A model generated the notes under the pieces. That model saw only the letters and a program-made list of their open reading frames with translations. It made no database searches and was not told the origin of the DNA. Below, piece after piece: positions 6,584-32,184 of a stretch of 64,000 nucleotides of DNA (the stretch's first letter is position 1; each line of letters starts with the position of its first letter). The translations under genes and the position numbers were made by a program. Source of the DNA: a virus; IMG/VR virus record IMGVR_UViG_3300031999_000005, positions 39,757 through 103,756 of that record; one strand, given 5' to 3'.

Positions 6584-6890
6584 CAGGCATCTGATCGGGC
6601 AGAAAACCCGAGAGGGGTACATCGTCAAAGACGGGAAGTTCTACATCTCCCTAAGCATGGCCTCCAGGATGAAGAACGTCATGGCGCAGGCGCTTGCACT
6701 TAAAAGATTGGCTAAGGAAACCAACACCTTTGTGGCGGCCCGCTACACTGAACTGGAAAAGGAAGGCCAGCGTTTTTGGACGGACATCTGCGATGACCTT
6801 GGGATTGAGATAGAAGGGCATCGCTGGATGTTTGATCCCTACAAGGATTGCGTTTTCGAGGCCCTGCCCCCAGAGAAGAAACAGGAATGA
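6558..6890 (+). CDS. hypothetical coiled-coil protein
   Basis: AGGAGG RBS; ATGA overlap with the ATPase gene. Confidence 0.55.
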   Translation: MTKKAKKDDRHLIGQKTREGYIVKDGKFYISLSMASRMKNVMAQALALKRLAKETNTFVAARYTELEKEGQRFWTDICDDLGIEIEGHRWMFDPYKDCVFEALPPEKKQE

Positions 6891-8650
6891 GTGTTGCTCT
6901 GCACATCGCGGAAGGACTGAACCTGCCGATTGATCTGGCAACGCAGACCATTCTCATTGTCGGCAAGCGCGGCAGTGGGAAGAGCACCACCTGCGTCCGT
7001 CTGGCCGAACAATTTTTCAAGGCGAAGATACCATTCGTCTCGATAGACCCGACCGATACATGGTACGGCCTGAAGGCTTCCAAGGATGGAAAGGGACCTG
7101 GACTGGGCGTCTACATCTTTGGTGGCCGGCACGCTGATCTCCCACTGGAGTCCACCGCAGGGGCGCTTGTAGCTGATGTGGTGGTGGATCATCGCATCTC
7201 CGCAGTTCTCTCCATTAAGCACTTCTCTGGCCGGGAGCGCGGTCGGTTTGTGTCGGACTTCGCTGACCGCCTCTACCACCGGAATACCGAACCTCTGCAC
7301 CTCTTCTTGGAGGAAGCCCATGAAGTGGCACCTCAGCAACCGTTCAAGGGCGAAGAAGAAATGCTTGGGCGAGTCACGCGGATCTGGAAACTCGGTCGAT
7401 CATCTGGCCTTGGTGGTTCAGCCATCACGCAGCGGCCAGCCTCGTTGTCGAAAAACATCACGACGCAGGCAGAGGTTCTAATAGTCCACCGGATTCTTGG
7501 GCCGCAGGATGTTGCGGCCATTCGGGAATGGATCAAATACCACGGGGAGAGCGACCAAGTTCTTTCACAACTGTCTGGATTGAAAACCGGTGAGGCATGG
7601 CTTTGGGCACCGGACTTCCCTGAAGGGTCTCCAATCGGACTTCGGCGGGTGAAAATCCTCGACCGCGAGACTTTCAATTCTTCGGCAACACCGAAGGCCG
7701 GGGAGCGCCAAACCGAACCGAAGGTGCTAGCCCCGGTTGATCTCGATGCCCTCCGTTCGAAGATGGCGGCTACCATTGAGCGTTCCAAGGCCGACGATCC
7801 GAAGGAACTGCGGAAGAAACTTGCGGCCAAGGATGCGGAGATTCGGAAGTTAACCGCTGGCATCAAGCCGGTCGATCCCGAAGCGCTGGAGCGTGCCCGC
7901 CAGGAAGGCGCGGACAATGCGGCCCGGCAGTTTCGCGGAGAGACCAAGAAACTCCAGGACAAGATAAAGGATACGGCGCAATTGCTGGCTGGCATCCGGG
8001 GGAGTTTCGATAAAGCCTGTGAGATTTTGAATGAGGCGTGCCTGGGAGAAATCAAGGCTGTGCCGTTCACTGAGGTAATGAGTCGGCCGAACCAGAGATT
8101 CAAGGCACCCGCTTTCAGACCCACGCCCCCCATCCTGCCGCGCAGGAACAAAGTGGTCGTTGAGGATGACGGGAATCTGACCGGCCCGGAGCAACGCATT
8201 CTGGACGCTATTGCTTGGATGGAAAGTATTGGAGTGAATCAGCCAGAGCAACCTGCCGTGGCATTCTTGGCGGGATACAGGATTGGCGGGGGTGCCTGGA
8301 ATAATCCTCGCGGTCGATTGCGAACCAGGGGACTGGTTGAATACGCCGGGAATTGCGTGCTACTGACTGAGGCTGGCCGTGCCCTTGCCAACAAGCCTGA
8401 TACACCGGCTACCACTGAGGGTCTGCACGCTGCCATCATGGCCCGGCTTCGCGGCCCTGAGCAGAAAATCCTGCGCGTGATCTTGGAGCGGTATCCTCAC
8501 AGTATCTCGAACGAGGAATGCGCGGCAGAGGCGGGGTACTCCCTGGGTGGTGCTTACAATAATCCCCGCGGTCGACTGCGGACACTGGGATTGATTGAAT
8601 ACCCTAGCGGCGGGATGCTGCGGGCGCGGGGCATCCTTTTCTTGGAGTGA
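6887..8650 (+). CDS. HerA/FtsK-superfamily (DUF87-like) ATPase with coiled coil and tandem C-terminal winged-helix repeats
   Basis: Walker A GKRGSGKS, Walker B LFLEEAH, GR..G and ITQRPA. Duplicated L.GPEQ.IL...AGY..GGA.NNPRGRLRT.GL.EY. Confidence 0.85.
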   Translation: MSVALHIAEGLNLPIDLATQTILIVGKRGSGKSTTCVRLAEQFFKAKIPFVSIDPTDTWYGLKASKDGKGPGLGVYIFGGRHADLPLESTAGALVADVVVDHRISAVLSIKHFSGRERGRFVSDFADRLYHRNTEPLHLFLEEAHEVAPQQPFKGEEEMLGRVTRIWKLGRSSGLGGSAITQRPASLSKNITTQAEVLIVHRILGPQDVAAIREWIKYHGESDQVLSQLSGLKTGEAWLWAPDFPEGSPIGLRRVKILDRETFNSSATPKAGERQTEPKVLAPVDLDALRSKMAATIERSKADDPKELRKKLAAKDAEIRKLTAGIKPVDPEALERARQEGADNAARQFRGETKKLQDKIKDTAQLLAGIRGSFDKACEILNEACLGEIKAVPFTEVMSRPNQRFKAPAFRPTPPILPRRNKVVVEDDGNLTGPEQRILDAIAWMESIGVNQPEQPAVAFLAGYRIGGGAWNNPRGRLRTRGLVEYAGNCVLLTEAGRALANKPDTPATTEGLHAAIMARLRGPEQKILRVILERYPHSISNEECAAEAGYSLGGAYNNPRGRLRTLGLIEYPSGGMLRARGILFLE

Positions 8651-8653
8651 ACC

Positions 8654-8890
8654 ATGATCGAATGCACCCTTCACGATTTTCACCAATGGCTGGATGAACA
8701 GGGTTGGCCGAGTGAAATCATTCTGCATCCAGACGACTTCACGCTGCTACAAGCCCGCTTTGGACCCGGAGACCGCAAACTGCTGTTCGATGACTGGAGA
8801 AACTATTTTATCTGTGGGCCTACGCGCATTCGACCGGGTGCCTCCAACAAGAAGTTTCTGGACGTGAGCAAGGAGAGACTGTTCAAGTGA
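8654..8890 (+). CDS. hypothetical protein
   Basis: GGAG RBS; coupled to the next ORF. Confidence 0.5.
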   Translation: MIECTLHDFHQWLDEQGWPSEIILHPDDFTLLQARFGPGDRKLLFDDWRNYFICGPTRIRPGASNKKFLDVSKERLFK

Positions 8891-9741
8891 AGCGCCAACA
8901 TCCAAATTTGGACATGCCGAAGGGCAAGCGCAAGTTCCACTGGAAGAGAGTCAACTACGCCTTGTTCGTCACGATTCGCAAGACGCCGAAGTTGGAAGCC
9001 TCTGCCGTCTACGGTCGTGCCATCGGGTTGAGGAAGGACGGCCAGACGTTTTCTGCGCTGGCCGCGTTGCCCTGGATCATCCCAAGGAAATTCGACTGGC
9101 GCCCGATAGCCAAGGCCCGCCTGGATTCTTTTCTTCTCGCAGATTGCCGCTGCAAATCGGAGGGTTCCGAAGTCACCACCTGCAAGATGCACCACGGGAT
9201 ACGAGGAAAGTGGTTGGCCGAAGACGCCAAGAGAACCAAAGAACTGCCAGCACAGCCAAATCTCTCGCTTGATTCTGGGCCGGTGTCTGGCTTCAGGGTG
9301 ATGAACAGAAACTATCCCTGGTGCGTGATGATCCTGGAGAAGAACGAGTGGTTCTGCGACATCTGCAAGGCCGCACACCCAGCGCATGAGGACAACCCGA
9401 GCTACCGGAATCAATTCATCCTGAGACATTCCCATTGCGGATTTCCGGCGGCGGGATATGCAGAATCGCTGCGGAAGTGCAATCTCAGCACATGGGCAGA
9501 CGCAGCGGCTGAGGCCAGGAAGCGCATAGATGAAGCTAGAAGGCGGGCAGACAAGGTTGAGGGAGAAGTGCAAGGTTATCGTCTCTTGGAGGTAGCCTTC
9601 AAAGAAATCTCTGCCGGTCGGTGCAATCCATACCTTCCTGAGCGAATGTCCTTTGAGGAAGTGGTCCAGCATGCTGTAGGGGAAGGGGTGGCGATTCCCG
9701 AATCGCTACGCCCGCAACTGTTGGAGGGAAAGAGCCGATGA
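8887..9741 (+). CDS. hypothetical protein
   Basis: 284-aa ORF overlapping its neighbours by GTGA/ATGA; C-terminal coiled coil. Confidence 0.55.
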   Translation: MKRQHPNLDMPKGKRKFHWKRVNYALFVTIRKTPKLEASAVYGRAIGLRKDGQTFSALAALPWIIPRKFDWRPIAKARLDSFLLADCRCKSEGSEVTTCKMHHGIRGKWLAEDAKRTKELPAQPNLSLDSGPVSGFRVMNRNYPWCVMILEKNEWFCDICKAAHPAHEDNPSYRNQFILRHSHCGFPAAGYAESLRKCNLSTWADAAAEARKRIDEARRRADKVEGEVQGYRLLEVAFKEISAGRCNPYLPERMSFEEVVQHAVGEGVAIPESLRPQLLEGKSR

Positions 9742-10163
9742 ACAGGCGCGAATTCTTCAAGAGCCTTGCCCTTGGTGCTGCGGTGATTGCCATTCCGGGC
9801 GCGGCACTGAAGGTGCTTGCTCAGAATCCAGGCAACCCGGCTGCTACCGCTGCCATCAAGACACAGGCGCCGCTTACGCTTCGTGCCCTCCAGAAAGCAT
9901 TCTTTGAGTGCTCGGTAGGCAAGGAATGCCCTTCGCAGATTTTTCTCAGTTCCTCTTGCTGGATCAAATTCGAGGAAATGATGCGCAACCACGATGAACG
10001 GCAATTATTCGTCAATCCTAAACGCCCGATCCAGAATCTCACTTTCCATGGTGCCGATGTCTGCCCCGATCCTGACACCCCGGACGACATGATGGTCTTC
10101 ATCAACGAAGAACATCCTGATAATCCCAGTCTGAACAAGCGTTTCCGTCTGGACGAAATCTGA
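9738..10163 (+). CDS. Tat-signal protein carrying a major-capsid A-domain paralogue
   Basis: MNRREFFK + hydrophobic stretch + VLA-Q. The mature part aligns by eye with the LSLKEVQ..WFLN segment of this phage's capsid protein. Confidence 0.7.
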   Translation: MNRREFFKSLALGAAVIAIPGAALKVLAQNPGNPAATAAIKTQAPLTLRALQKAFFECSVGKECPSQIFLSSSCWIKFEEMMRNHDERQLFVNPKRPIQNLTFHGADVCPDPDTPDDMMVFINEEHPDNPSLNKRFRLDEI

Positions 10164-10226
10164 GATTGACAGGTTCGATGTTTTACAAGTATGCTGACAA
10201 TCGCCGCAGCAGAAAGGAACTGACAA

Positions 10227-10460
10227 ATGCCATACCCGAACGAAAGTCCATTGGTTCTTCTCGACTCCCTGGTTTGCAGCATGTGCTTGCATATCATGCG
10301 CCGCGTGTTGGAGATCGATGCGAATGGGAAGTTCAAGAAAGCCACCCACTACTGCGACACCTGCAAGTACGGATACGAAATAACCAGGGATAAGGCCCTG
10401 CATCCAGCCAATGGCCGTGATGTGCCGTGGGTTGCCGAAGTGAAGGATGGTGCCAAGTGA
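10227..10460 (+). CDS. small Zn-ribbon protein
   Basis: CSMC...CDTC; AAGGA RBS. Confidence 0.55.
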   Translation: MPYPNESPLVLLDSLVCSMCLHIMRRVLEIDANGKFKKATHYCDTCKYGYEITRDKALHPANGRDVPWVAEVKDGAK

Positions 10461-10735
10461 TTCGTGACCCGCTCGGAAGAATTTTCAAGCCCGGCCAGAA
10501 GGTCATTCTCGCCAAGGGCATCCTGCCGGAGATGATCTTGGCGCAGGTGATGGAGGTCAACGACAACATCCTCACCACGGGGCCAAACCAGCAGCAGCCG
10601 CGGACGGTGGTGTTTGGTCTCGGCAGTTTCACTGTGGCCTTGGGTGGTCCCGGAGATGTAGTCAACGTTTCGATCATCGTCCAGGAAGCTGACGAGAAGA
10701 TCCCGCAGATCGAAGGGGAAAGCAAGGTGAACTGA
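10457..10735 (+). CDS. hypothetical protein
   Basis: GTGA overlap start; RDPLGRIFKPGQKV SH3-like start. Confidence 0.55.
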   Translation: MIRDPLGRIFKPGQKVILAKGILPEMILAQVMEVNDNILTTGPNQQQPRTVVFGLGSFTVALGGPGDVVNVSIIVQEADEKIPQIEGESKVN

Positions 10736-11217
10736 TGAAGGACGCATTATACGCCCTTGTTTTGGTGTTGATTGGCCTGCTGGCTGGCGGCATGGTTCTG
10801 GCCCTGGCCTTTCTCTTCTACCTTGTCCGCCAAGCAGTGATGAACCTCACGGCGGCCTGCGCTGCGCTCCAGAAGGACATCAGCGACTTCCGTGGGGCGA
10901 TGGAGAGATTGGCGGTAAGCCCTGATTACCAAGGAGCGATTACGGCCGTCCGCACGATTGCGGTTCTTGGGCCGGCAGTGACGGCGCGGGTGGAGGCCCT
11001 TACTGTGGTGATTGGGAACTGGGTCAAGATCATGAACATCAGGGGAGAAGGGCCAGCGAAGGAAGTGGACTCAGCGGCCTACGGGTACAGCGAACAAATG
11101 GCGGCGCAGAACGAAGCAGCAAGGGAACTGGGGAAGCAAGGGATCGTTCTTGCGGAGGCGCCGGCGGAGATCCCGGTGGACAAGATGCGGACGCTTTCGC
11201 AGGAGCCGCCAGGGTAA
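10735..11217 (+). CDS. membrane protein
   Basis: Long N-terminal hydrophobic segment; TGATG coupling. Confidence 0.6.
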   Translation: MKDALYALVLVLIGLLAGGMVLALAFLFYLVRQAVMNLTAACAALQKDISDFRGAMERLAVSPDYQGAITAVRTIAVLGPAVTARVEALTVVIGNWVKIMNIRGEGPAKEVDSAAYGYSEQMAAQNEAARELGKQGIVLAEAPAEIPVDKMRTLSQEPPG

Positions 11218-11271
11218 AGAATCGGGGCCGGTTGTGGGGAGTTCGTCGAATAGGAGTAGAATAAGGCGGGC

Positions 11272-11329
11272 CGCAGCGGTGCATGGTATTCGAGGAAACC
11301 TCGAACCAGAAACACACCGCTGCGTTTTT
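11272..11329 (+). terminator. long hairpin followed by T5 (terminator or ncRNA element)
   Basis: CGCAGCGGTG / CACCGCTGCG stem with inner TTCGAGG-AAA-CCTCGAA, followed by TTTTT. Confidence 0.5.
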
Positions 11330-11377
11330 AAGGCTCCTCCGCTCAGAAATGAACAGCCGGCCTCCGAACGGCCCTTG

Positions 11378-11454
11378 CGCTCCAGGCTAAGATTCGTGGC
11401 ACGCCGGTTGCAGCCCGGCGGGATTCTAGGTGACGTGACTCTTAGCTTGGAGCG
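11378..11454 (+). ncRNA. structured RNA hairpin domain
   Basis: 15-bp stem CGCTCCAGGCTAAGA / TCTTAGCTTGGAGCG enclosing a GCCGG-TTGCAGC-CCGGC stem-loop. Confidence 0.45.
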
Positions 11455-11603
11455 GAGCGGCCCGATGCGGCGTGGAAGGACACGCGGGCGCAAGCCAGCA
11501 CGGGGATTCGGCGGACGGCCCCTGGTGAAACGGCCTAATAGCCAGGGGTGGCGATTACCGATGAAAGTGCAGCCGGGTTAGAACCGGCCATCGGGTCGCT
11601 CCA
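11454..11603 (+). ncRNA. tRNA-like structured RNA
   Basis: 14-bp closing stem 11454-67/11589-602, D-arm-like GCGTG-GAAGGA-CACGC, T-arm-like GCCGG-GTTAGAA-CCGGC, expanded central domain. Confidence 0.55.
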
Positions 11604-11609
11604 CTACTT

Positions 11610-11686
11610 CGGGGCGTAGCGCAGCCTGGTAGCGCGCTTGCCTTGGGCGCCGGTAATCCCCGGTTCAAATCCGGGCGCCCCGACCA
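11610..11686 (+). tRNA. tRNA-Pro (TGG)
   Basis: Full cloverleaf: CGGGGCG/CGCCCCG acceptor stem, D-loop AGCCTGGTA, anticodon TGG at 11644-46, TTCAAAT T-loop, encoded CCA. Confidence 0.95.
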
Positions 11687-11725
11687 ACCTAACGAACGTC
11701 CACATTCGGATGTAAAACCTACCTC

Positions 11726-11755
11726 TTGACTCCCTGCCGGTTCTCGAACCACAAT
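11726..11755 (+). promoter_or_regulatory. putative promoter of the packaging operon
   Basis: TTGACT-18bp-CACAAT, 10 nt before the TerS ATG; palindrome copy at 11696-11713 just upstream. Confidence 0.45.
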
Positions 11756-11765
11756 ATCAGCGAAT

Positions 11766-12326
11766 ATGCCGCCCAACGTCCTTGCCTCGCCTGTCCACCG
11801 ATTTCGCTATGCTCGGGCACGAAGCGGGATGACCATTGAGGACATCGCCGCACAGGATCATGTGTCCGTCGATACGGTCAGAACCTCCATCAAGGCGGTC
11901 GAAATTCGCAAGCAACTGTGCAGCATTCATGAGGTAGAGACGGCGGAGGCGCAATTGCTGCTCGACACGATTCCCTTGCAACAGAAGGCTCTTACAGAGG
12001 CCCTGGTTGCCACGCAGATCGTCATGGGAACGAAGGGAAGGGTCAAAGAGGTTCCTGACCACACCACCCGGATGCGCGCTGTTGACGTGCTGACACAGAA
12101 ATCCGCATCGCTCCGACCGCAGGTAAAGATCGCCCCGACCACTCAGGTGAACGTCAACACCGGGAACCAAACACTGGTAAACGGCATGACGTTTGAAGAC
12201 CGGGTGCGGCAGATCGTGGAAAAACGCCGAGAAGCTGAGACCGTGCCTGCGCTGGCCGCCCCAGTTGATTTGGGCGGCTACATCGAGGCTGAACCCGAAG
12301 GGGATGTCGATGGCGATAAGCCGTAA
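11766..12326 (+). CDS. terminase small subunit (putative)
   Basis: N-terminal HTH, EVPDHTTRMRAV motif, position directly upstream of TerL. Confidence 0.7.
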   Translation: MPPNVLASPVHRFRYARARSGMTIEDIAAQDHVSVDTVRTSIKAVEIRKQLCSIHEVETAEAQLLLDTIPLQQKALTEALVATQIVMGTKGRVKEVPDHTTRMRAVDVLTQKSASLRPQVKIAPTTQVNVNTGNQTLVNGMTFEDRVRQIVEKRREAETVPALAAPVDLGGYIEAEPEGDVDGDKP

Positions 12327-15300
12327 AGACCCCTACCTGAACGAAATCCTCGAAATCCTGGACATGATCTACGATCAGGCAGGGAATGACATCGCTCGGG
12401 CCTATTCGAGCCTCGGCACGCACGAACTGAAATTCATCGAGGAAGAAACCACCCGTTGCGCTGACTGGCGGTACTACGTCGAAAATTATCACATCATCCG
12501 CACCGTGGACGGGAATCTTCAGACGCTCTATCCACTGTGGGACAGCCAGGAAATCTTTTATGAACCGGTGCTTCTAGCGCAGAGAGCACACCTGCCGGTT
12601 CGGATAATTACGCTCAAGGCAAGGCGACTCGGCCTCTCGACAGAATGTCAATCGCTGATCTTCCATAAAACCATCTTCACCCATAATTGGGATTCGCTGA
12701 TCGTTGCGCAGGACCCTGACCAGACAGCGTACCTTTTTGAGATGAGCCGGCTCGCCTACGAGAAATTGCCCTGGTGGATGCGGCCTGAATCGCGGTATGA
12801 CGTGAAGGGCACCCAATTGGTGTTTGACCGCAAGGACCCGAAGGAACGTTTGCTGCATCCGGGTTTGCGCTCACAGATCATGGTTGCCTCAGCTAATAAA
12901 ATGTCAGGAATTTCTGTGGGTAAGGCGCTCATGTCAACGCACCTGTGCCTGACTAAAGAAAACTATGTGTTGCGACAGGATGGGAAGATAACCCCGATCT
13001 CAGAAATAAAGGTTGGTGACAGGGTTGAATCCCGTTGCGGACCTGTCCCGGTGTCTTTCGTGTCTTTCAGGGAATCAGATGCTAATGTCAGTGTCACGCC
13101 TTGGTGCAATTCTGCATTTCCGATCATCGGCACACCGAACCACCGCATTCTCTGTGGGGAACTCGTCAAGAAGCAAATTGCCGGAAAGCGGGGACCTGCA
13201 ATAAGGAATATCCGGTGGGTAGAACTGGGCAAGGTGTCGCTGAAAGATTGTCTAGTGATTCCAGTAAAGAAAATTTCTGACACACGAGAGTTGCCTGTGG
13301 CACGTTTGCCCGAGTCATTCCGTCGAAAACATGGAGGAGGCTCGATCCCGCTCCCGATCAGTCCACAGAAAACCAGAGAATGGGGATTTGCCATTGGCCT
13401 TTATCTGGCCGAGGGAAGCATCGAAAAGGCAAAAGTCATAATCAGTCTCGACAAAAAAGAGAATGGGTTGGCTAGTCGCTTTTCAAGGGCAATCGGAGTC
13501 GCTGAAGGGAAAGTGGGAAAGTCCCGAAAAACAAGGACCAGGGTGCATCGTTTCTATAATGCTGCGTTGGCTACGTGGCTTGCTGACAATTTCGGGCATC
13601 ATGGAGAAAAGATCATCCCCGATTGGGCATGGGAGACGGGCCGCGACTTTTTGCTGGGGATTATCGAAGGTCTGATGCTCGGAGACGGCCACTTCCCGCT
13701 CAAAAATAGAGAGTGCATATTTTGCTCCATCTGTCCACAGTTGTCGATCCGCCTGCGAGACGCCGTAGCGTCATTGGGGATCGGTTACGGTTCGCTGTAT
13801 CTCAGGAAAGCTGGAATTCGATACGGGAGAAACTGCAAGAATGCTTGGTTGACCCATTTTGCGATGAAAACAAATGATTCGCTTCGCCTACTCTTTGGGA
13901 TCAAGCCATCTAGAAAGGTCCAGAGACATCATGGTAAGCACTGGTATTATTCCTTGAACAGATCAGAGATTTACGTGCGTCTGCGAAAAATAGAAGAGGT
14001 CCTCGGTGATACGGTCTATGACATTGAGGTCGATTCCCCAAACCACGAATTTTTGCTTCCTGGAGCCGTTACACACAATTCAGAATTGAGCCTCTGGCCT
14101 GATCCCAAGAAGCTGGCCGAGTATCTTTTCCCGACGATGGAGAGCAACCAGGGTTTGTACTTCATGGAATCCACGTCGCGTGGTCGGCATGGATTCTGGC
14201 CGCGATTCTGGAAAAAATCGGTGCGGCGGGAAACTAACTGGACCCCTGTTTTTATTGAGTCATTCCGGGTGAGGAAGTATTCGATCCCAATTGACGCAGG
14301 TGAGAATTTCGTGCTGACGGCTGAAGAAAAGGCCATCCGCGACAAGGTTTTGAGGCAGCGGAAAGTCGAAATCCCCCTGGAGCATTTCAAGTGGCGCCGG
14401 AAGACAATCCAGGACTTTGTTGCGGCAAATGGCGATGATTCGATGTACTACCAGGAATTCCCGGCCACGAGTCCTTCAGAATCATTCGTGGGCACTGGCT
14501 TGTGTGCGTTTGACAAGAAAAAACTTCAGCGGATCAGGGAAGAAACGTGTTGCGATCCAATCTGGTTTGGTGAGATTCGCCTGGAAAAGAAAAAGCCGCG
14601 AGCCATCCTGTACGAATCTGCCAAGGCTGCACATATTCCTCCGCAGACAGTGGAAGGTGGTCGGTTATACGTTTGGGAGATGCCCGAGCCGAAGGAAATC
14701 TACTATGTGTCAGGTGACGTGGCCGAAGGAATCATCGGAGGTAATTTCTCGGATGCGCAGGTGCTTCGCAAGGGGAAGGGACCGGCTCCAGATGTGCAGG
14801 TAGCCGAATGGCACGGGTGGATCAGCCCAGAGGAATTCGCTGAAGTTTTGGCCGCCCTGGGGATGCTCTACAACAATGCTGAAATAGCGCCGGAAACCAA
14901 CGCGAAGTGTGGTGGACTGATGATCGGGCACCTCTCGCGGGTGGTTGAATACGAGAACATTTTCCGGTGGAAGCATTACGACAAAGTGAAAAACCAGCGG
15001 ACGAACTACCTTGGTTGGGCCACGAACACCAAGAGCCGAGCGGACATCATTGCTAAGGGAACCCGTGCGGTCAGAGAGGGCCTAGTGATAATCCGCAGCG
15101 AGGAGTTGGTCGAGGAAATGTTCGATTTCGCCAGCACTGATGACTCGGTGAAGATCGAGGGCCAGGACAACTGGGATGATCGTGTGATGAGTTTCCTAAT
15201 TGGCTATTTCTGTGCGCACGATTCAGACGAATACACGGACTACGGAAAAAGCAGCGAACCAGAAAAGGACAGAGGGCGAGATTTCTACAACACCGAATCC

Positions 15301-15435
15301 TGTGCGCCTTGTACCAATCGACCACCGAGCCAGACGGTCTTCCACGATCAAAAAATGCCATCGGACATGAGCCTGTACTTGGCGAATGCACCGATGCCTG
15401 AAGGAGATGACAACGAACTGTGGAAGAGGTTATAA
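12310..15435 (+). CDS. terL: terminase large subunit (intein-containing)
   Basis: LKARRLGLST Walker A region; HL|SE Walker B split by the intein; MESTSRG coupling motif; nuclease SGDVAEG...DDRVMS. Confidence 0.95.
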   Translation: MAISRKDPYLNEILEILDMIYDQAGNDIARAYSSLGTHELKFIEEETTRCADWRYYVENYHIIRTVDGNLQTLYPLWDSQEIFYEPVLLAQRAHLPVRIITLKARRLGLSTECQSLIFHKTIFTHNWDSLIVAQDPDQTAYLFEMSRLAYEKLPWWMRPESRYDVKGTQLVFDRKDPKERLLHPGLRSQIMVASANKMSGISVGKALMSTHLCLTKENYVLRQDGKITPISEIKVGDRVESRCGPVPVSFVSFRESDANVSVTPWCNSAFPIIGTPNHRILCGELVKKQIAGKRGPAIRNIRWVELGKVSLKDCLVIPVKKISDTRELPVARLPESFRRKHGGGSIPLPISPQKTREWGFAIGLYLAEGSIEKAKVIISLDKKENGLASRFSRAIGVAEGKVGKSRKTRTRVHRFYNAALATWLADNFGHHGEKIIPDWAWETGRDFLLGIIEGLMLGDGHFPLKNRECIFCSICPQLSIRLRDAVASLGIGYGSLYLRKAGIRYGRNCKNAWLTHFAMKTNDSLRLLFGIKPSRKVQRHHGKHWYYSLNRSEIYVRLRKIEEVLGDTVYDIEVDSPNHEFLLPGAVTHNSELSLWPDPKKLAEYLFPTMESNQGLYFMESTSRGRHGFWPRFWKKSVRRETNWTPVFIESFRVRKYSIPIDAGENFVLTAEEKAIRDKVLRQRKVEIPLEHFKWRRKTIQDFVAANGDDSMYYQEFPATSPSESFVGTGLCAFDKKKLQRIREETCCDPIWFGEIRLEKKKPRAILYESAKAAHIPPQTVEGGRLYVWEMPEPKEIYYVSGDVAEGIIGGNFSDAQVLRKGKGPAPDVQVAEWHGWISPEEFAEVLAALGMLYNNAEIAPETNAKCGGLMIGHLSRVVEYENIFRWKHYDKVKNQRTNYLGWATNTKSRADIIAKGTRAVREGLVIIRSEELVEEMFDFASTDDSVKIEGQDNWDDRVMSFLIGYFCAHDSDEYTDYGKSSEPEKDRGRDFYNTESCAPCTNRPPSQTVFHDQKMPSDMSLYLANAPMPEGDDNELWKRL
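12946..14079 (+). mobile_element. intein with LAGLIDADG homing endonuclease (378 aa)
   Basis: Begins CLTKENYV and ends VYDIEV..HEFLLPGAVTHN|S. Block B TPNHRI; LAGLIDADG helices IGLYLAEGS and IEGLMLGDG. Confidence 0.95.
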
Positions 15436-16197: not shown

Positions 16198-18045
16198 ATG
16201 GCTGCTGCCGCTTCCGCTTATCCTGAACTGAAGCCGAAATACGAATTGCATCCGAGTACCGGCCAACCCTACTGGCCCTCTGGCGAAGAGGGAACCGAAT
16301 ACCTCCGCAGCATCCGCGCCTATACAGAAGCGGCTTTTGAGGAAGCCAGCTACGACAACCGGCAATCCGAGGAAGTCCGCGAGGTCCAGAAGTACATCAA
16401 CTACATCGTCGGGGACCAATGGCCGGTGGGCCGGCCAACGTACAAATCCAAGCCAGTGAACAACCGTATCTGGCCGATCTTTTGGGAACTGGTGTCGCTG
16501 CTGACGGACATCCGACCGATGTTCGAGGTGCTGACGTACAACAAGGAATTCCAGCGACATGCGGACATTCTGAACGCGGCCACAAAAAGCTGGTGGTTGG
16601 AGAACGACGCCGACCTGAAGTTGGCCTTCATCATTATCTATGCGTTACTGGGCACCGGCTACGGGAAGTTGACGTGGGACAGGTTTGCCAGGAATGGTCA
16701 GGGGGATTTCGATTTGATCCCCTGCGGCCCAAGCGACGTGTTGCCGCTCAAAGCCCGGTTTCACATTCAGGATGCGCAGGCGGTGATCTACCGGTCGGTG
16801 GTGGCGGTTAATTGGGTGAAGAACAAATTCCCGCTTACCAGCGCAGGGATTGAGGCGGATGCCAAATACTCACGATTCCAGGTCACGGGAGATAAGGGGA
16901 ACTTCCCTGGATCGAAGATGATGTTTGACATGCTGTCGCCGCAGATGCAGTACCGGTATACCGGTGGCACGGCCAACATGAAGCCATCCTCTTTCCCGAT
17001 GTGTCTGTACCGGGAGTATTGGCTCCGTGATTTTACAGAAAACGCCTCCAACGCTATCGTGAAAATGGGCCGCGGCGGGTGGTCATATTTTGTGAAACCT
17101 GGAGAACGGCTTTATCCGCGGGGCCGACTGATTATCATGGCTGGAGAGGGTGCGAAGGCAATGCCCATGGATGATTGCCCAAATCCCTACGCTCACGGGA
17201 TGTACCCATTCGGTTGCCTGCGGATGAACCCGGTGCCCTGGACGTTTTCGGGCTTGAGTGACCTTCGACCTTTGATGTCCCTGCAAGACATTGTGAACAA
17301 CATCTTGGCCGGCATTCTGGACATGGTAAAGAAGGCGCTGAATCCGGTTATGCTGGCGCCACGGAACGCAATCGCGGAAGGATTGTGGAATTCGCTGGAC
17401 AATTCAATGCCAGGGCTACGGATTGCCTACAATCCAAACGCAGCGGCTGCTCCGTTTTACCAGCCGACACCCAACATCCCCGGCTACGTGATGATGACCT
17501 ATGATCGTGCGGCGGCCGAGATGGACCGCACATCAAGCGGAGCAACGGCGGCTTCAGCGGCGCGAAAAAAACAGGTGCCCGGTGCTGAGACTCTTGCGGA
17601 ACTTCAGAACGCACAGCAGACCCCGGTGCGGCTCAAGGGCCGGTGGACAGAAGTTTTCCTGCGGGATCTTGGGAAAATGGACATCTACAACATTTTCCAG
17701 TTTTACGACAAAAAGCGCCGGTTCTTCATGCTGGGGGATAAGGGAATCACGGTGGAGGATTCAGACCAATCGCCGAACAGCATGGTACCGCACGGGTCAA
17801 CAGTTGAAGACCATGCCAAGAACTTCGCGTTCTTCATTCGGCCAGGCACGCTACTGAATCTGGACAAGGCGCAACGAGCAATGACGGTGCTTGCGCTGCG
17901 GCGCCAGGGCGACATCGACCGGAGCACGATGTACGACGAACTGGAAATGGGCGTGGACGTGGGGATGATCGAAAAGAATCTGGAAGCGGAAATGGCCAAG
18001 AAATTGGCGCTGGTCGCAAAAGCCCAGCGACCGGGGGGCGGATGA
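16198..18045 (+). CDS. portal protein (P22/SU10-like)
   Basis: 615 aa downstream of TerL; GDQW..NRIWP..GTGYGKLTWD..YPF..LQDIVN pattern. Confidence 0.9.
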   Translation: MAAAASAYPELKPKYELHPSTGQPYWPSGEEGTEYLRSIRAYTEAAFEEASYDNRQSEEVREVQKYINYIVGDQWPVGRPTYKSKPVNNRIWPIFWELVSLLTDIRPMFEVLTYNKEFQRHADILNAATKSWWLENDADLKLAFIIIYALLGTGYGKLTWDRFARNGQGDFDLIPCGPSDVLPLKARFHIQDAQAVIYRSVVAVNWVKNKFPLTSAGIEADAKYSRFQVTGDKGNFPGSKMMFDMLSPQMQYRYTGGTANMKPSSFPMCLYREYWLRDFTENASNAIVKMGRGGWSYFVKPGERLYPRGRLIIMAGEGAKAMPMDDCPNPYAHGMYPFGCLRMNPVPWTFSGLSDLRPLMSLQDIVNNILAGILDMVKKALNPVMLAPRNAIAEGLWNSLDNSMPGLRIAYNPNAAAAPFYQPTPNIPGYVMMTYDRAAAEMDRTSSGATAASAARKKQVPGAETLAELQNAQQTPVRLKGRWTEVFLRDLGKMDIYNIFQFYDKKRRFFMLGDKGITVEDSDQSPNSMVPHGSTVEDHAKNFAFFIRPGTLLNLDKAQRAMTVLALRRQGDIDRSTMYDELEMGVDVGMIEKNLEAEMAKKLALVAKAQRPGGG

Positions 18046-19351: not shown

Positions 19352-20299
19352 GTGGCATTACCGGAAGCAATTGAAGAGATGCTGAAGACCCTTCCCGCAG
19401 AGGATCAGGAGGCTCTGCGCCCACGCTTCGAGAAGCACCAACCACTCCGCGATGGCTACCTGCGCCAGAACGAATTTGACCGCAAGTTCAACGAGTGGAA
19501 AGAGCAGAAGGAGAAAGAGCAGGCCGCGATTGAAGCCCGCAAGGCGGAGATCGAAAAGGCAATCGCAGAACCCAGGGATTGGCTGAAACGCAATAAGAGC
19601 AAACACGACCAACTCCTTACTGAACACAAGGCCCTGGAAACAGCGAACCAGGAACTGACGGCGCAACTCGAAGCGGCAGAAGCAGCACGAAATAACGGGA
19701 GGGAAACGGACATGGACGAAGCAGCAGTGAAAGCAGCGGCGCAAGCCGTAGTGGACGAGCGCGTGAAGGCGCTCAAGGCAGAGCAGGCTGGCTACATCAC
19801 GCAGAAGCAGATGGACGATATCGTGAAAAGCACCACGGACCAGTTCTTCGCGGTGACTCTTCCGAACTCAATGAATTTCGCCTCAGCCGTGTTGGATTGC
19901 CAGTTGGAGCATCGGCAGGAATTTGGTGAACGCTTGGACCGCAGCAAATTTGCGGAGTGGATGCAGAAAAAGTTGGAGGAGACGAAGAACCCCATGTATG
20001 GGGACCCCTACGTAGCCTACAACGAATACATGGCACCACGGCGCGCTGAAGCCACCGAGAAAAAGCGCCAGAAGGACCTGGACGACGCCCGCACTGAGGG
20101 TGCCGAAAAGGCCCGCAAAGAATTCGCCGCAACCGCAGGCGTACCGGGGAGTGGCGTTCCGCCAGCCCCATCAGAACTTGGTCCAATGCAGAGGCACGTT
20201 CTCGGCAAAGACGTACAATTGCCGGCGGGCGTGGAGATCGGCGATGGCCGCGCAGCGATGGCGGCTGCCGAATCGCTCCGTGCTGAGGGCAAGTTCTGA
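19352..20299 (+). CDS. capsid scaffolding protein (putative)
   Basis: Helical/coiled-coil, charged protein immediately upstream of the capsid gene. Confidence 0.75.
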   Translation: MALPEAIEEMLKTLPAEDQEALRPRFEKHQPLRDGYLRQNEFDRKFNEWKEQKEKEQAAIEARKAEIEKAIAEPRDWLKRNKSKHDQLLTEHKALETANQELTAQLEAAEAARNNGRETDMDEAAVKAAAQAVVDERVKALKAEQAGYITQKQMDDIVKSTTDQFFAVTLPNSMNFASAVLDCQLEHRQEFGERLDRSKFAEWMQKKLEETKNPMYGDPYVAYNEYMAPRRAEATEKKRQKDLDDARTEGAEKARKEFAATAGVPGSGVPPAPSELGPMQRHVLGKDVQLPAGVEIGDGRAAMAAAESLRAEGKF

Positions 20300-20594
20300 A
20301 GTCGTGCCCCGCATGGGGTGCGTGGAAGAAACCGGGTGGGGAACCCGCCTTCAGGAGTTAACGTAGAGGTTGTAAACTCATGCGTTTCCTGAGAAGCCCT
20401 TTTGGACAGTTCACCACTGCCCATCGGAAGGCCATTCAGCCCCAGCCGATTGGGGAGCAGCGATTAAGAGGCCCGCAGAGCCGGAAGTCGGAGTGAACGC
20501 AGCCGGCGGCGGATGATTCTAACCCTCAAAATCCCTGCCCCTTTGTCGGGGCAAAAGGAGGATGGCCTTCCCGGTGGGAGGGCCAACATACCAA

Positions 20595-21447
20595 ATGGCA
20601 CTCACTTGGGGTGATTTAACTTCAAAAACCAATAGCCATATCGTGCCACGCTTGATTGACACGATCTACCGCACGTCCGCTCTGCTGACGCGCATCAGGA
20701 CGCGCAACACCGAGCGGTTCGAAGGCGGGGATTCTCTCAAGGTTCCCATCATGCACGCCGAACTGAAGGGCGGTCCCTTCACTCGCGGCGGCACCTTCGA
20801 TTGCTCGTATGTCGAGTCCGATACGGCCCTCAATTTCTTGATGAAGCCGTATTACGTCAACGTTTCCATCTACGGCCTGGACTGTGCGCTGAACCGCGGT
20901 CCCGAAGCCGCAATGACGATCATTGACTCGAAGATGGCGAACGCCGGCGGGAAGATGGCGAAGTTGCTGGCAACCGATATGTACCTGGACGGCCAGGGCA
21001 CCGCTTCTTCGGCCATCGCATTGGATGGATTTTCCGGAGCCCTAGACGATGGAAGTAATTTTCCAGTTTACGGCCAAATCACCCGGACGGATCTTTCCGC
21101 CACGGCGAACACCGGCATCAACGCCTACTACAAGGTGGTGGCCACGCTGTCCCTGAAGGAAGTGCAGACGGCCTTCGGAAGCACGTGGTTCGGCGGAGAA
21201 CACGCGGATCTGCTCACCACCACCCAGGCCGTGTGGGACATCTGGTGGAACAAACTGCAACCGCAACAGCGGTTCAACGAAGAGTCCAGCGATGTGGGCA
21301 AAATCGGCTTTCAATCGTTCAGGTACAATTCCGCTCAGGTAGTGGTTGACCAGCATTGCCCAGCGGGCAAACTCTGGTTCCTGAACATGAAGTACGTGAA
21401 CCTGTACCTGAGCACGATGCCGCAATTCCAGTTCGGGTTCACAGGAT
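20595..21447 (+). CDS. major capsid protein, exon 1 (HK97 fold, SU10/P22-like)
   Basis: MALTWGDL..., LDGF.GAL..G..YGQITR, QPQQRF..GFQSF.YN...VVVDQHCP.G.LWFLN. Alternative start at 20562. Confidence 0.9.
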
Positions 21448-22616
21448 CAACTTTCGGTCCCCTTTCAAGCACCGTCAGCGAAGGAATGACGGTAAACTAG
21501 GAAGGAAAATTCTGCTATATGCTGGGACAACAGGTCATGCCGAGCTACTTACAAGGTAAAAAGGCGACGGATAATCCTGTCAATCAGCAAGGAAGAATCG
21601 TTCAAATTGCTCGTCTCGCAGGAATCTTTGATTGCGAGGGATGCTTCTACCTGAACCGCTATGGTCGGTCTCATGATTGCTATTCCGTGGTTGCGAGAGT
21701 CAGCAACTCGAATATGCGGATCATCGAGGAAGTTTGCTCTACACTGTCGGTTCTGGGTTTCAAGTACAACAGAACTGATGGTCTGCCGACAGGAATGGGC
21801 GGTCGGGTGTCGGAAATTAGGCTGCATGGGACAAAGAGGGCGAAGCCGCTTATCGAACTCATCGCCCCGTATCTGTCAGCCAAATCCCGCGTTACTGACC
21901 TTCTGAAGATGTTTTGGGAACGCAGAGATTCAGTAGCGTATGGGGCATCCTACACAGAAGAAGATTTCAGAATTCACCGGGCTGTCCGGGCAGTCAATTC
22001 CAACGGCACAGCAAAGGACATACCCGTTGGAGATCATCTGGAATTGGTTGGACCGTCGAGAGTAGCACGGCTTGGAGAGGTGGAAGCGAAAGCCAAACTT
22101 GCAGCCATCGTGGAATGCGATGGTTCTCTCGGCCTGACTAATCTGAGGAATGGGGAGAACTACATGCCAGCGATTTACATGGTGAACACGAACGAATCTT
22201 TGCTTGCAGAGATTCGTCAATCACTGGCTATGCTTGGAATTCCCTACTACTTCCAGATGAGACCGCCACGAGGCATTTCGATCAAGGCCATCGGTGAATT
22301 CCACATTCAGGGAATGAAGCGTGCCAAGCGGTTCCTGGATGCCATAGGTGATTATTTCGTAGCCTACGCGGAACGGGCAAAATTGATTCGGCAATTCATC
22401 AATCGTCGGCTTTCTCTCCCGGCCAACTATCCGTATTCGGAAGTTGAGCGGGAGATCAAGAGGGCCTTGGACGAAGAGAAACCGAAGAGCGATTCCCTTC
22501 AACGACTGCACGCAGAACCGGGCAAGTCCCGGATGATACAGTCTGTTCTGCATGGAGACATGCAGACGGCGGCAGAAATGACCGCCGCGCTCGCGTAAGC
22601 GAGAGGTAACAGCAAG
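21448..22616 (+). mobile_element. group I self-splicing intron in the major capsid gene
   Basis: P1 GGAU|C..GGUCC with U.G wobble at the 5' splice site; P10 CUUUC/GGAAG; core AATCAGCAAGG, TTCAACGACTG, GATACAGTC (P7); terminal G at 22616. Splicing restores the frame FTG-W-KENQFSIDVAGQ. Confidence 0.9.
21519..22598 (+). CDS. intron-encoded double-motif LAGLIDADG homing endonuclease
   Basis: RLAGIFDCEGCF and KLAAIVECDGSL. Confidence 0.9.
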   Translation: MLGQQVMPSYLQGKKATDNPVNQQGRIVQIARLAGIFDCEGCFYLNRYGRSHDCYSVVARVSNSNMRIIEEVCSTLSVLGFKYNRTDGLPTGMGGRVSEIRLHGTKRAKPLIELIAPYLSAKSRVTDLLKMFWERRDSVAYGASYTEEDFRIHRAVRAVNSNGTAKDIPVGDHLELVGPSRVARLGEVEAKAKLAAIVECDGSLGLTNLRNGENYMPAIYMVNTNESLLAEIRQSLAMLGIPYYFQMRPPRGISIKAIGEFHIQGMKRAKRFLDAIGDYFVAYAERAKLIRQFINRRLSLPANYPYSEVEREIKRALDEEKPKSDSLQRLHAEPGKSRMIQSVLHGDMQTAAEMTAALA

Positions 22617-22726
22617 GGAAGGAAAATCAATTCTCGATTGATGTGGCCGGGCAGTACCTGTTCCTTGGCAACATCGTCGTAACCGCGCCTCGGCTGATGG
22701 CGCAGATAAGTGGAATAACTGGTTGA
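22617..22726 (+). CDS. major capsid protein, exon 2
   Basis: (W)KENQFSIDVAGQYLFLGNIVVTAPRLMAQISGITG-stop, a typical capsid C-terminus. Confidence 0.9.
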
Positions 22727-22756: not shown

Positions 22757-23437
22757 ATGGCAGCTTGCTTAACACTGGGTCAAGCCGGGGTATATAGAGT
22801 GATGGCGGAACTCTTGCTCCGCGGTCACAGGCCGTACATTCCGGCAGTGGACGATCATGGTGTTGATTTGGCTCTTTCCACTGGAGTCAGAATACAGGTC
22901 AAGACGGCTCGTCTCCACACCAGGAAGAATTGGCCGAGAAAGCCAATCTACCATCTGACATTTGGATGGGCACAGATAGGCCGGACGCACATTCCTATCC
23001 GCAGAAAGAAGAATTACAGTTCAGAATGCGATTTTCTCATCATCTACGGTGTTGATGAAAACCGCTTTTGGATTGTTCCTAGCTTCCTGTTGGACGGGAG
23101 AACATGCCTGATGCTTGGACCCCGATGCCGAGTTGTTCGTGGGCAGATAGAGGAACTTCTCGATGTCGGGGTGACGAGAATCGAGGCAGCGAGGAAACTC
23201 GGCGTTGATCGGCATACCATCACAAGGCGGTTGAAGGGCGAGGGAACGAAAAATGGCGGCTTTGTGAGATCAGTCAGAATGTGCGAAGACCAATGGGGAC
23301 TTTTGGGTTCTCCAGTTTTCGCTCCATTCGTGGGGAACCCGCCCAGTCTTCCAGGCGGTGAGACGGCCCAACAGAAAACAAGAGAGGAAACACAATGTCA
23401 GTCGCTGTCACTAACAACAATCTGCCATACCTCCTGA
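22757..23437 (+). CDS. free-standing PD-(D/E)XK endonuclease (I-Ssp6803I-like) with HTH
   Basis: GQAG...AELLLRG...P..D.GVDL....IQVKT; CDFLIIY; IEAARKLGVDRHTITRRL. Confidence 0.8.
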   Translation: MAACLTLGQAGVYRVMAELLLRGHRPYIPAVDDHGVDLALSTGVRIQVKTARLHTRKNWPRKPIYHLTFGWAQIGRTHIPIRRKKNYSSECDFLIIYGVDENRFWIVPSFLLDGRTCLMLGPRCRVVRGQIEELLDVGVTRIEAARKLGVDRHTITRRLKGEGTKNGGFVRSVRMCEDQWGLLGSPVFAPFVGNPPSLPGGETAQQKTREETQCQSLSLTTICHTS

Positions 23438-23979
23438 TTCCCGAGATTTCAACCGGCAACGTTGCGACCGTCAACGATGCCTACAGCACCACAATCAGCG
23501 CCGCAAACCCCTACGGGAACGGCGCAAAGAATGCACCTGGCGCAGCGTTTTACGCAGCCGATTCGGCTGGCCGGGTTGCCAAGTACCGCTACGTGCGGCT
23601 TTACCCAGGCACGCCACCGGGGGCCTACATCGTGGGGCCGGTTTACTGGAAGGACAACACGTTCACCATCGTGACCACCACGCTGTCCAACGCTGTGACG
23701 GCCGAGGCAAGCGCCTTTGCCGGCATCCTGCTGCGGGCAGAGGCCACACCGGCACTGATGACCGGCAACTGGGTGGTGATCCTGGTTCGCGGGTTCCTTG
23801 CTGCTCTCGTTGTCGCGGCCAGCCCTACCGCAGGCGATGAAGTATACGGGACGGCTGGTGATCAGATACTTAACGGCAAGGTGACCAGCGGCACGGCGCC
23901 GAAATTCCCTGGTCATGACATCCGGGCGCTGACCACCAGTGCCACGCCCGATGTCTGGGTTGAAGCCGAGGGTGCGTAA
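23395..23979 (+). CDS. putative capsid decoration/cement protein A1
   Basis: Downstream of the capsid gene; KYRYVR motif; paralogue of A2. Confidence 0.65.
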   Translation: MSVAVTNNNLPYLLIPEISTGNVATVNDAYSTTISAANPYGNGAKNAPGAAFYAADSAGRVAKYRYVRLYPGTPPGAYIVGPVYWKDNTFTIVTTTLSNAVTAEASAFAGILLRAEATPALMTGNWVVILVRGFLAALVVAASPTAGDEVYGTAGDQILNGKVTSGTAPKFPGHDIRALTTSATPDVWVEAEGA

Positions 23980-24062
23980 ACGGGGTGACCTGATTCCAAG
24001 GGGTGGGCCTAACTAGCCTTTCCCCTTGGGGCCGGGACACAACCAAAAGAGAGGACAACACA

Positions 24063-24650
24063 ATGGCAGTAGCAGTGACGAACAACAACATCCCGTACCT
24101 CCTCGAACCCGAGATCAGCACCGGCAACATCGCCACCGTCAATGACGCTTACAGCACGACCAAGAGCGCGGCCAACCCTTACGGGAATGGCGCGAAGAAC
24201 CAGCCGGGAGCGGCATTCTACGCTGCTGACTCGGCTGGCCGAATTCTGAAATGCCGCTACGTGCGGCTCAATCCAGGCACCCCGCCGGCATCCTACAAGG
24301 TCGGCGTTGTCTACTGGCAGGATGCTGCCCGGACGATTGTAACCACCACACTCTCGAATTCACTCACAGCCGAGGCATCTTCCCTCGCTGGCGTTTTGCT
24401 ACGAGCTGATGCGACCCCCGCAAACATGACGGGGAATTGGGTGGTGATCGTAACGCATGGCTTTGTCGCGGGTGTTTTCGCCGTCGCTGCCACTGCGGCA
24501 GGCGATGAACTCTTCGGCGATACGGGCGATCAGGTCGTGGACCGGGTAGCCACTGGCACGGCACCGAAATTCCCAGGGCACGATCTCCGGGCCATCACCG
24601 CAGTTGCGGCTGGTGTGTCAGATGTTTGGGTGGACGCGGAGGGCGCGTAA
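24063..24650 (+). CDS. putative capsid decoration/cement protein A2
   Basis: Near-identical N-terminus to A1. Confidence 0.65.
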   Translation: MAVAVTNNNIPYLLEPEISTGNIATVNDAYSTTKSAANPYGNGAKNQPGAAFYAADSAGRILKCRYVRLNPGTPPASYKVGVVYWQDAARTIVTTTLSNSLTAEASSLAGVLLRADATPANMTGNWVVIVTHGFVAGVFAVAATAAGDELFGDTGDQVVDRVATGTAPKFPGHDLRAITAVAAGVSDVWVDAEGA

Positions 24651-24715: not shown

Positions 24716-25177
24716 ATGGCTGTAACCATCAATAAAGTCGCGGATGGAGAGTGGTCGCTCGGCAACAAGATTGCCGTGATCGTGGATCTTTCATCAATCA
24801 CCTACGTTGCTGGCGGGGTGCCAATCGCCGCTGGAGACGTGGGTTTGGGCAAGATCCTCGGCGCTCAAATCCTTGGAGGCAGCGCTGAGTCCGCTGTCCT
24901 GAACTGGTTCTGGGACACCACCAACCTCAAACTGATGGCCACCTTCCCTACCGGGGGTGCAACAGTGCCAGTAACACTGATTCCCCCTGTTGCCACTGCA
25001 TCGGCGGTTTCGGGAGCTTGTACCGCTGGCATAGCAACGGCTTCAGCGGTCAATGCTGTCACACCGGCTATTACGGGTACCGCAGCGGCTCAAGTTCTGG
25101 TGGCCGGAGTGAGCAAAGAACCTGGAGCCATTGCCCTCAGCGCTTGCAGGCTGCGGGTAATGTTCATTGGCTACTAA
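24716..25177 (+). CDS. putative head structural protein B1
   Basis: Y..GG.P motif; 153 aa; paralogue of B2. Confidence 0.6.
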   Translation: MAVTINKVADGEWSLGNKIAVIVDLSSITYVAGGVPIAAGDVGLGKILGAQILGGSAESAVLNWFWDTTNLKLMATFPTGGATVPVTLIPPVATASAVSGACTAGIATASAVNAVTPAITGTAAAQVLVAGVSKEPGAIALSACRLRVMFIGY

Positions 25178-25224: not shown

Positions 25225-25686
25225 ATGGCAGTGACTATCACCAAAGTCGCAGATGGCGAGTGGTCTATCGGCAATAAAATCGGCGTGATCGTAGACCTTT
25301 CAGCGATCACCTACGTTTCTAGCGGGGTGCCAATTGCTGCCGGGGATGTGGGTCTGGGAAAGATTCTCGGGGCACAGATTCTCGGAGGCAGCGCTACTGC
25401 TGCGCTCTTAAATTGGTTTTGGGACTCCACCAATCTCAAGTTGATGGCGTTCTTCCCGACTGGAGGCGCGTCAACGCCGGGCACGTTGATTGCTCCTGTG
25501 CTTACTGCATCGTCAGTTACAGGAAATTGTACCGCTGGCGGGCAGACGGCCTCGTCAGTCGATGCTACGACGCCGACCATCGCCGGTACCGCAGTAGCTC
25601 AAGCGCTGGTGGCCGGTGTGGGCAAGGAATCTGGGGCCATCGCCCTCACCAACTGCACGGTGCGGGTGATGTTCATTGGTTACTAA
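25225..25686 (+). CDS. putative head structural protein B2
   Basis: 153 aa, highly similar to B1. Confidence 0.6.
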   Translation: MAVTITKVADGEWSIGNKIGVIVDLSAITYVSSGVPIAAGDVGLGKILGAQILGGSATAALLNWFWDSTNLKLMAFFPTGGASTPGTLIAPVLTASSVTGNCTAGGQTASSVDATTPTIAGTAVAQALVAGVGKESGAIALTNCTVRVMFIGY

Positions 25687-32171: not shown

Positions 32172-32184
32172 CAAGGAGGACGGC

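Follow-up and report, generated by a model that had tools for sequence, protein, structure and literature searches.

A capsid A-domain joined to a predicted twin-arginine leader in an uncultured sediment phage

The window considered here is the right-hand 64 kb (64,000 nucleotides) of the IMG/VR virus record IMGVR_UViG_3300031999_000005, which covers 103,756 bp of an uncultured sediment phage (CheckV completeness 88%); nearly every gene of the window lies on the + strand. It carries an accessory phage gene at 9738..10163 whose 141-aa product, P0001, appears with high confidence, from sequence and structural modeling, to consist of a twin-arginine translocation (Tat) leader joined to the A-domain of an HK97-fold major capsid protein (MCP). 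Taken as a whole, we find it reasonably probable that P0001 is a Tat-exported, capsid-derived domain acting as a non-essential factor directed at the cell envelope. The first-pass annotation of this stretch had described the open reading frame (ORF) as a Tat-exported paralogue of the A-domain of the phage's own capsid protein. Its coordinates and protein sequence agree with ours, and the capsid segment that it quoted corresponds to 21147..21386, inside the MCP ORF (phrog_9953). The features on which the comparison rests are the following.

9738..10163, + strand: ORF of P0001, 141 aa, from the ORF list and the sequence
9738..9821, + strand: predicted Tat signal peptide, P0001 residues 1-28
9822..9866, + strand: linker rich in Pro, Ala and Thr, residues 29-43
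9867..10163, + strand: homologue of the HK97-fold A-domain, residues 44-141, and stop codon
20562..21500, + strand: ORF of the MCP (P0002), phrog_9953 'major head protein', E 3e-33
21120..21398, + strand: homologous MCP stretch, P0002 residues ~187-279, in MCP exon 1 (profile match G000:C1:60876-61154, E 4e-15)

Homology with the Capsid A-Domain

On the evidence of profiles and of the predicted fold, we regard it as settled that the mature part of P0001 is a true homologue of the A-domain of HK97-fold MCPs, of the type found in SU10-like podoviruses. The similarity previously noticed by eye is real, but it is weak for the pair alone: BLASTP of P0001 against the phage's own MCP gives 23 identities over 100 positions with an E-value of 0.004 in a single comparison, and the MCP is absent at E<5 when P0001 is compared with all ORFs of the phage. 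P0001 also matches phrog_9953, the PHROG of the MCP, at E 0.0038. Since the pairwise signal alone would fail in a genome-wide search, profiles were needed, and together with structure they are decisive. They were built from a family comprising P0001 and 21 proteins of 85-183 aa retrieved by an exhaustive hidden Markov model search of 1.8 billion representatives. A profile of 20 members, leaving out P0001 and its close homologue P0004, matches residues 187-279 of the phage's MCP with 51 bits (E 7e-18), and hhalign aligns the family with 26 aligned MCPs over 85 columns (98.9% probability, E 2e-17). The family profile retrieves the MCP gene in all 50 of the 50 related phage records (E 7e-7 to 1e-21), and seven of the 22 members singly match the NCBIfam model NF033394, capsid_maj_Podo, at E<=0.1 (best 1.4e-6). 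Positions conserved in MCPs are retained in the passenger, namely L48, Q52, A54, G61, E63 and W75.

The predicted structure points in the same direction. Two sequences alone yielded an unusable AlphaFold model (predicted local distance difference test, pLDDT, of 43); the 22-sequence alignment yielded a model with a mean pLDDT of 80.5, exceeding 90 over most of residues 50-140. The 16 top-ranked Foldseek matches of this model in the PDB (14 of them listed) are all HK97-fold capsids, with weak E-values of 0.03-0.15, and its matches in BFVD are major capsid proteins at a probability of at least 0.99. VIA-align superposes residues 44-140 of the model on HK97, D3 and encapsulin chains with Z-scores of 8-10, including 10.1 for an encapsulin shell (root-mean-square deviation, rmsd, 2.3 A; 92 residues aligned) and 8.6 for residues 253-383 of HK97 gp5, which correspond to the A-domain. 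The profile or structural match to capsid A-domains on which the first-pass annotation had staked its reading was therefore found by hhalign as well as by Foldseek and VIA-align.

This kinship is confined to a single domain. The MCP counterpart is limited to residues ~187-279, 43 of the 141 residues of P0001 are leader and linker, and the C-terminal family motif I-N-E-x-x-P-x-D-P-x-L-N does not align with the MCP. P0001 does not comprise the full capsomer-forming HK97 fold with its N-arm, E-loop, spine helix and P-domain. As the N-arm, E-loop and P-domain are gone, P0001 cannot be a subunit of the shell.

The Twin-Arginine Leader

The N-terminus of P0001 reads as a Tat signal peptide in each of its regions, from which export is predicted. 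An n-region, MNRREFFK, is followed by an uncharged h-region of 16 residues, SLALGAAVIAIPGAAL, with a mean Kyte-Doolittle value of 2.0, and by a c-region, KVLA, that includes a basic residue; the likely signal-peptidase site, placed by eye, falls between VLA and Q. As the first-pass annotation required of a functional leader, the twin-arginine signal is conserved: R3, R4 and F6 are near-invariant across the family alignment, 20 of the 22 members combine RRxF with an uncharged stretch (9-24 residues, typically 12-24), and P0001 and P0004 agree best in the leader. Two short models, whose scores are weak, recognize part of the family at best: TIGR01409 matches nine of the 22 members at E<=0.1 (best 2e-4), and Pfam TAT_signal (PF10518) matches five (best 8e-4). 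Searched against the PDB, the family profile matches the CueO signal peptide best. In a metagenome scan, the leader resembles those of a bacterial sulfatase (70% identity over 23 residues) and of a bacterial flavoprotein (48% over 40 residues), and nothing was found in that scan beyond such leader-level matches to ordinary bacterial Tat proteins.

The linker that follows contains a conserved proline (Pro31), varies in length within the family and has a lower pLDDT. By eye, about nine of 20 members have a small residue one or two positions before this conserved proline, which is compatible with a signal-peptidase site. Cysteines are not conserved in the family, so that disulfide formation is not the reason for export. 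On these grounds, we consider export and cleavage of P0001 to be quite probable.

With its strong leader and compact fold, the architecture could also suit a hijack of the export machinery, in which an abundant and very stable small passenger would saturate or block the host Tat translocase and stop host substrates such as cell-wall amidases. This seems very unlikely, as it would leave unexplained both the use of a capsid domain and the passenger's own conserved motifs.

Relatives and Descent of P0001

No full-length capsid is found among the 21 further family proteins. The closest homologue of P0001, P0004, is 66% identical, and the 22 representatives span 23-67% identity with the frame kept open. 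The family has constraints of its own: G61, P65 and F103 never vary, and MCPs do not share the C-terminal INE..P.DP..N motif. In a tree built from 90 shared columns, the 34 MCPs of the clade form one group (Shimodaira-Hasegawa-like approximate likelihood ratio test, SH-aLRT, 96), and all small proteins fall outside it on much longer branches, which argues for an old, fast-evolving lineage. A recent duplicate of the phage's own MCP was rejected, since the tree places the family outside the MCP group of the clade. The earlier description of P0001 as a paralogue of this phage's capsid protein therefore stands as far as homology with the A-domain is concerned, but P0001 is not a recent copy and belongs instead to an old accessory lineage.

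The low pairwise identity with the MCP, and a codon fit weaker than that of core genes, would be consistent with a decaying fragment of a duplicated capsid gene left open by chance. Against this, the open frame, the leader and the family's own invariant residues persist in 22 representatives at 23-67% identity, the fold is predicted with confidence, and the family lies outside the MCP clade; such a fragment is highly improbable and strongly disfavored.

The gene is patchily distributed. A search for further Tat-tagged copies came up empty in 50 related IMG/VR phage records (nine of them at least 90% complete), in four Acidobacteriota metagenome-assembled genomes (MAGs) carrying this MCP type, and in a sample of 401 Acidobacteriota genomes. 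Searches with tblastn of P0001 and P0021 against GenBank phages gave no match, scans of IMG/VR with alignments A1 and A4 and with proteins P0021, P0005 and P0009 returned no record encoding a relative, and a search of genome contigs with P0021 returned none.

Other small ORFs with twin-arginine leaders occur in this group of phages. Two more are found in the phage itself, at 62970..63281 of the window (MTRRGAVALLAVVAG..) and at G000:C1:12009..12239 (L130 1010..1240; MKRRSFFALLLGALG..), both being putative genes. The complete 108-kb relative G014 (L138) has four on its minus strand, at 9819..12077 and 19617..20225 (e.g., MERREFFKVTAG.. and MNRRTFFGALLG..), which match the family profile through the leader only. 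The passengers of these two and four ORFs showed no kinship to virion proteins in phmmer and PHROG searches; for the two ORFs of the phage itself, no kin of any sort was detected.

Genomic Setting and the Variable Cassette

The gene of P0001 and its surroundings comprise the following features.

6848..8650: HerA-like P-loop ATPase, 600 aa, with helix-turn-helix (HTH) repeats at the C-terminus; PADLOC HerA models match at E 2e-15
8898..8915, no strand: 18-bp palindrome with core TCCAAATTTGGA
8914..9741, + strand: upstream neighbor in translational coupling with the P0001 gene; 275 aa, ATG at 8914; rich in Cys and His
8949..10210, no strand: variable cassette (1,262 nt) that contains both genes
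9723..9727, + strand: Shine-Dalgarno sequence GGAGG, 10 nt before the ATG of the P0001 gene, read from the sequence
12193..15435, + strand: large terminase gene (terL)
16198..18045, + strand: portal gene, SU10/P22-type

The ORF at 9738..10163 is a real gene, as judged from its Shine-Dalgarno site, its translational coupling to the upstream gene through an ATGA overlap (start codon at 9738, stop codon TGA of the upstream gene at 9739..9741), the shared strand of its neighbors, its coding score, and a frame kept open in a 66%-identical homologue and in 20 diverged representatives. With codon usage trained on the core genes of the phage, the frame scores a log-odds of +0.09 per codon, below the fit of the core genes themselves, and both long antisense frames are negative. 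The gene sits between the HerA-like ATPase gene and the packaging genes, with ORF 11766..12326 (without family match) 1.6 kb, terL 2 kb and the MCP gene 10.4 kb downstream of it; this corrects the earlier statement that it lies far from the head genes. The window also encodes SU10-type adaptors and one ORF of 3,502 aa. No RNA dataset was listed as holding the stretch. The host is probably an acidobacterium, by association: the sole MAG contigs with this MCP type are labeled Acidobacteriota, as are the nearest ESM Atlas clusters.

Two observations concern the flanking genes. A 78-aa ORF (8654..8890) lies downstream of the HerA-like ATPase gene and is followed by the variable cassette. The terminase ORF (12193..15435) encodes 1,080 aa, of which terminase profiles match residues 82-206 and 753-1005 only; the ~550 residues between the matched parts could be an inserted element or domain.

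The stretch is present in several sediment metagenomes, and near-identical contigs in four of them, from four studies (runs X2-X5, one contig each), join position 8948 directly to 10211, with 59 other letters in place of the 1,262 nt of the cassette and flanks that bear 1-6 differences. No contig of these runs covers 9516..10208, the bridging joint alone being the evidence, and this short form is the sole form assembled across the junction in those four samples. The left edge of the cassette lies 12 codons into the 275-aa gene and the right edge 16 nt before the ATG of the next gene; the skipped segment contains exactly the P0001 gene and its translationally coupled neighbor. The palindrome, which directly precedes and overlaps the ATG of the 275-aa gene, is retained in both the long and the short forms.

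The 275-aa neighbor has no signal peptide, its coding score is positive and that of its antisense frame negative, and it has no match in Pfam, PHROG, NCBIfam, PADLOC, PDB or Atlas. Its residues 8-116 have 34%-identical counterparts in G013 and G027, located in G013 ~11 kb upstream of the MCP gene, a similar spacing; the rest of the protein has no detectable kin. Because the N-terminal part of the neighbor has counterparts in relatives, the short form is more likely the product of a deletion or replacement than ancestral. In any case, as near-identical genomes skip the cassette, both genes are dispensable in nature, which speaks against their being essential for virion assembly and is what one would expect of an accessory gene of the arms-race type.

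This dispensability bears on the proposal, already made in the first-pass annotation, that the exported A-domain would act as a periplasmic stand-in for the capsid surface, holding or chaperoning fibre or decoration proteins with signal peptides until lysis. Sec-type signal peptides are indeed present on proteins of the virion module (28063, 29376 and 34843), which also encodes an exported LTXXQ-like protein (32185) and a lipoprotein (32593), and A-domains form the center of capsomers, where decoration proteins bind in other phages. Nevertheless, near-identical genomes lack the gene, being the only form across the junction in four other samples, and 50 related phages, searched for this small gene alone, yielded no copy of it. 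Fibre docking is therefore unlikely as an essential step, and we consider this proposal, now weakened, quite unlikely. Independently of P0001, the region 28063..37878, in which large fibre-like proteins carry Sec-type signal peptides (28063, 29376, 34843) with 32185 and 32593 between them, is unusual for virion genes.

Possible Roles of a Probably Exported A-Domain

The reading that we favor, in which P0001 is exported as a non-essential, envelope-directed factor, can be set out as a sequence of predicted steps. The pre-protein would comprise three parts: residues 1-28 as a host-type Tat signal peptide, a linker that is short and flexible, and an MCP-derived A-domain of ~95 residues. The domain would fold in the cytoplasm, its leader would be recognized by the host Tat translocase, and the folded protein would be moved to the periplasm of a diderm host, probably a member of the Acidobacteriota, where signal peptidase would release the domain, probably after VLA28. 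Once in the periplasm, it may act on the cell envelope as a non-essential, fast-evolving factor of competition or host interaction, for instance in superinfection exclusion or by binding an envelope protein, the capsid domain serving as a stable scaffold. For this last step, the envelope-directed role taken by itself, our proposal is tentative.

Several points weigh against this reading. Scored alone against PF10518, P0001 obtains 14.3 bits (E 0.042), below the curated cut-off of 22.7. Two representatives of the family, P0008 and P0023, have the A-domain without a leader, and three relatives encode small leaderless A-domain ORFs that adjoin terminase or portal genes (in G050/G023 and G027), so that a cytoplasmic role of the domain exists in this group. 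With its 59-nt replacement, the short form may be a deletion derivative, and it speaks for dispensability in nature while being silent on function. No data point to a specific periplasmic target. The capsids of incoming phages never enter the periplasm, which leaves a capsid-derived domain there with no obvious ligand.

The leaderless relatives, and the position of the gene just upstream of the packaging genes, lend themselves to an explanation in which P0001 stays in the cytoplasm, its twin-arginine leader serving as a membrane tether or for another use, and its A-domain acts in head assembly, as the leaderless ORFs of relatives might. We hold this to be unlikely: region by region, the leader agrees with genuine Tat leaders, and no other part of the family is as well conserved; even a signal-anchor, given a positive n-region, would carry the domain out of the cytoplasm; and the gene is dispensable.

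Another explanation would account for the use of both the Tat pathway and a piece of the virion. The A-domain may copy an MCP surface that is seen by a host factor, such as a capsid-sensing defense protein, and the Tat leader may then export this factor by hitchhiking, or hold it at the TatBC receptor, which would protect the infection. Among general export routes, Tat alone accepts folded proteins together with bound partners, the passenger retains positions conserved in MCPs, and fast evolution, patchy presence and dispensability suit an arms-race gene. This capsid mimicry is nonetheless rather unlikely. No host partner is known, PADLOC finds nothing near the P0001 gene apart from the HerA-like ATPase, known capsid sensors are activated and not blocked by capsid binding, and many of them are too large for Tat. 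An extended version, which we likewise consider improbable, is that phages repeatedly place Tat leaders on folded pieces taken from their own virion proteins, and that such mimics export or pin host factors sensing capsids or portals, P0001 being the example from SU10-like acidobacterial phages; if true, it would amount to counter-defense by 'export of the sensor'.

Other Features of the Head Module

The head module of the window shows further peculiarities. The MCP gene is split (20562..22726): exon 1 (20562..21446) ends at about 21446 (..FGFTG), and the last 35 residues, conserved in relatives, are encoded in another frame at 22619..22726. The 1.17-kb insert carries a LAGLIDADG endonuclease ORF (21519..22598) and looks like an intron with a homing endonuclease; a search of the insert with Rfam found no group I intron. 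Directly after exon 2, a PD-(D/E)XK endonuclease with an HTH domain (22757..23437) is a second gene of the head module that resembles a mobile endonuclease. In the relative L078 (G040), at 10001..11780, the MCP likewise occupies two frames: one covers residues 14-169, and a second of 186 aa, ~750 nt further on, encodes the A-domain part.

Downstream of the MCP gene are two tandem pairs of paralogues (23395..23979 with 24003..24650, and 24716..25177 with 25225..25686); they have near-identical N-termini and no family match. Finally, the SU10 adaptor family PF24175 is matched by 25770..27011, 33288..33956 and 33956..34846, indicating adaptor paralogues spread in the tail module.

Relation to Known Systems and Concluding Remarks

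P0001 combines traits of several known groups of proteins. It resembles the MCPs of SU10-like podoviruses (its own MCP, phrog_9953 and NF033394) in sequence and fold over MCP residues ~187-279, but has no N-arm, E-loop, spine helix or P-domain, bears an export leader and its own C-terminal motif, and evolves several times faster. With bacterial Tat substrates (TIGR01409 and PF10518; CueO and Tat-lipoprotein sulfatases) it shares an S/T/N-R-R-x-F-[LF]-K motif, an h-region of mild hydrophobicity, a basic c-region and an AxA-like site; unlike them, it is phage-encoded and its passenger is a virus-derived structural domain without a cofactor site.

To our knowledge, the export of phage morons and superinfection-exclusion proteins relies on Sec or lipoprotein signals or on membrane helices, and we know of no such protein that derives from a capsid protein. 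Such envelope-exported proteins include T5 Llp, Ltp-type lipoproteins and P22 SieA (reviewed in PMC11436027). Like them, P0001 is the product of a small, dispensable and patchily distributed phage gene and is predicted to be envelope-bound.

Stand-alone A-domains have been described before. The Family 4 'A-domain encapsulins' (PF08967, DUF1884; PDB 2PK8, which is PF0899 of Pyrococcus furiosus) are cytoplasmic, A-domain-only proteins of ~100 residues whose function is unknown; they are found in hyperthermophilic archaea and Rhodothermus as cellular genes downstream of enzyme genes, and have no signal peptide (PMC8346489). The mature domain of P0001 is likewise an A-domain only, of ~98 residues, and 2PK8 aligns with the model with a Z-score of 7.4 (rmsd 3.7, 85 residues). 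The P0001 family differs in that phages carry it, in its Tat tag and in its sequence kinship to SU10-like podovirus MCPs, and PF08967 is matched neither by P0001 (E<=1) nor by any of the 22 members (E<=0.1), for which TAT_signal is the sole Pfam match. The two groups are most likely independent reductions of the HK97 fold. The first-pass annotation knew of no equivalent to P0001, which holds for the complete design and not for the isolated domain: Family 4 encapsulins are published stand-alone A-domain proteins, without export signal and not encoded by phages (PMC8346489), and full-text literature searches turned up no account of a capsid domain fused to a Tat leader. As predicted here, this design is new in the published record.

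Capsid proteins count as the textbook case of viral proteins that are cytoplasmic and self-assembling. A conserved family in which one capsid domain has been excised, provided with a host export signal and placed under a selection of its own would reveal a new route by which structural viral folds give rise to envelope-directed accessory proteins, and would add phage genes to the short list of cofactor-free Tat substrates. Since the gene is naturally present or absent among near-identical genomes, its effect is directly testable by comparing the two forms.

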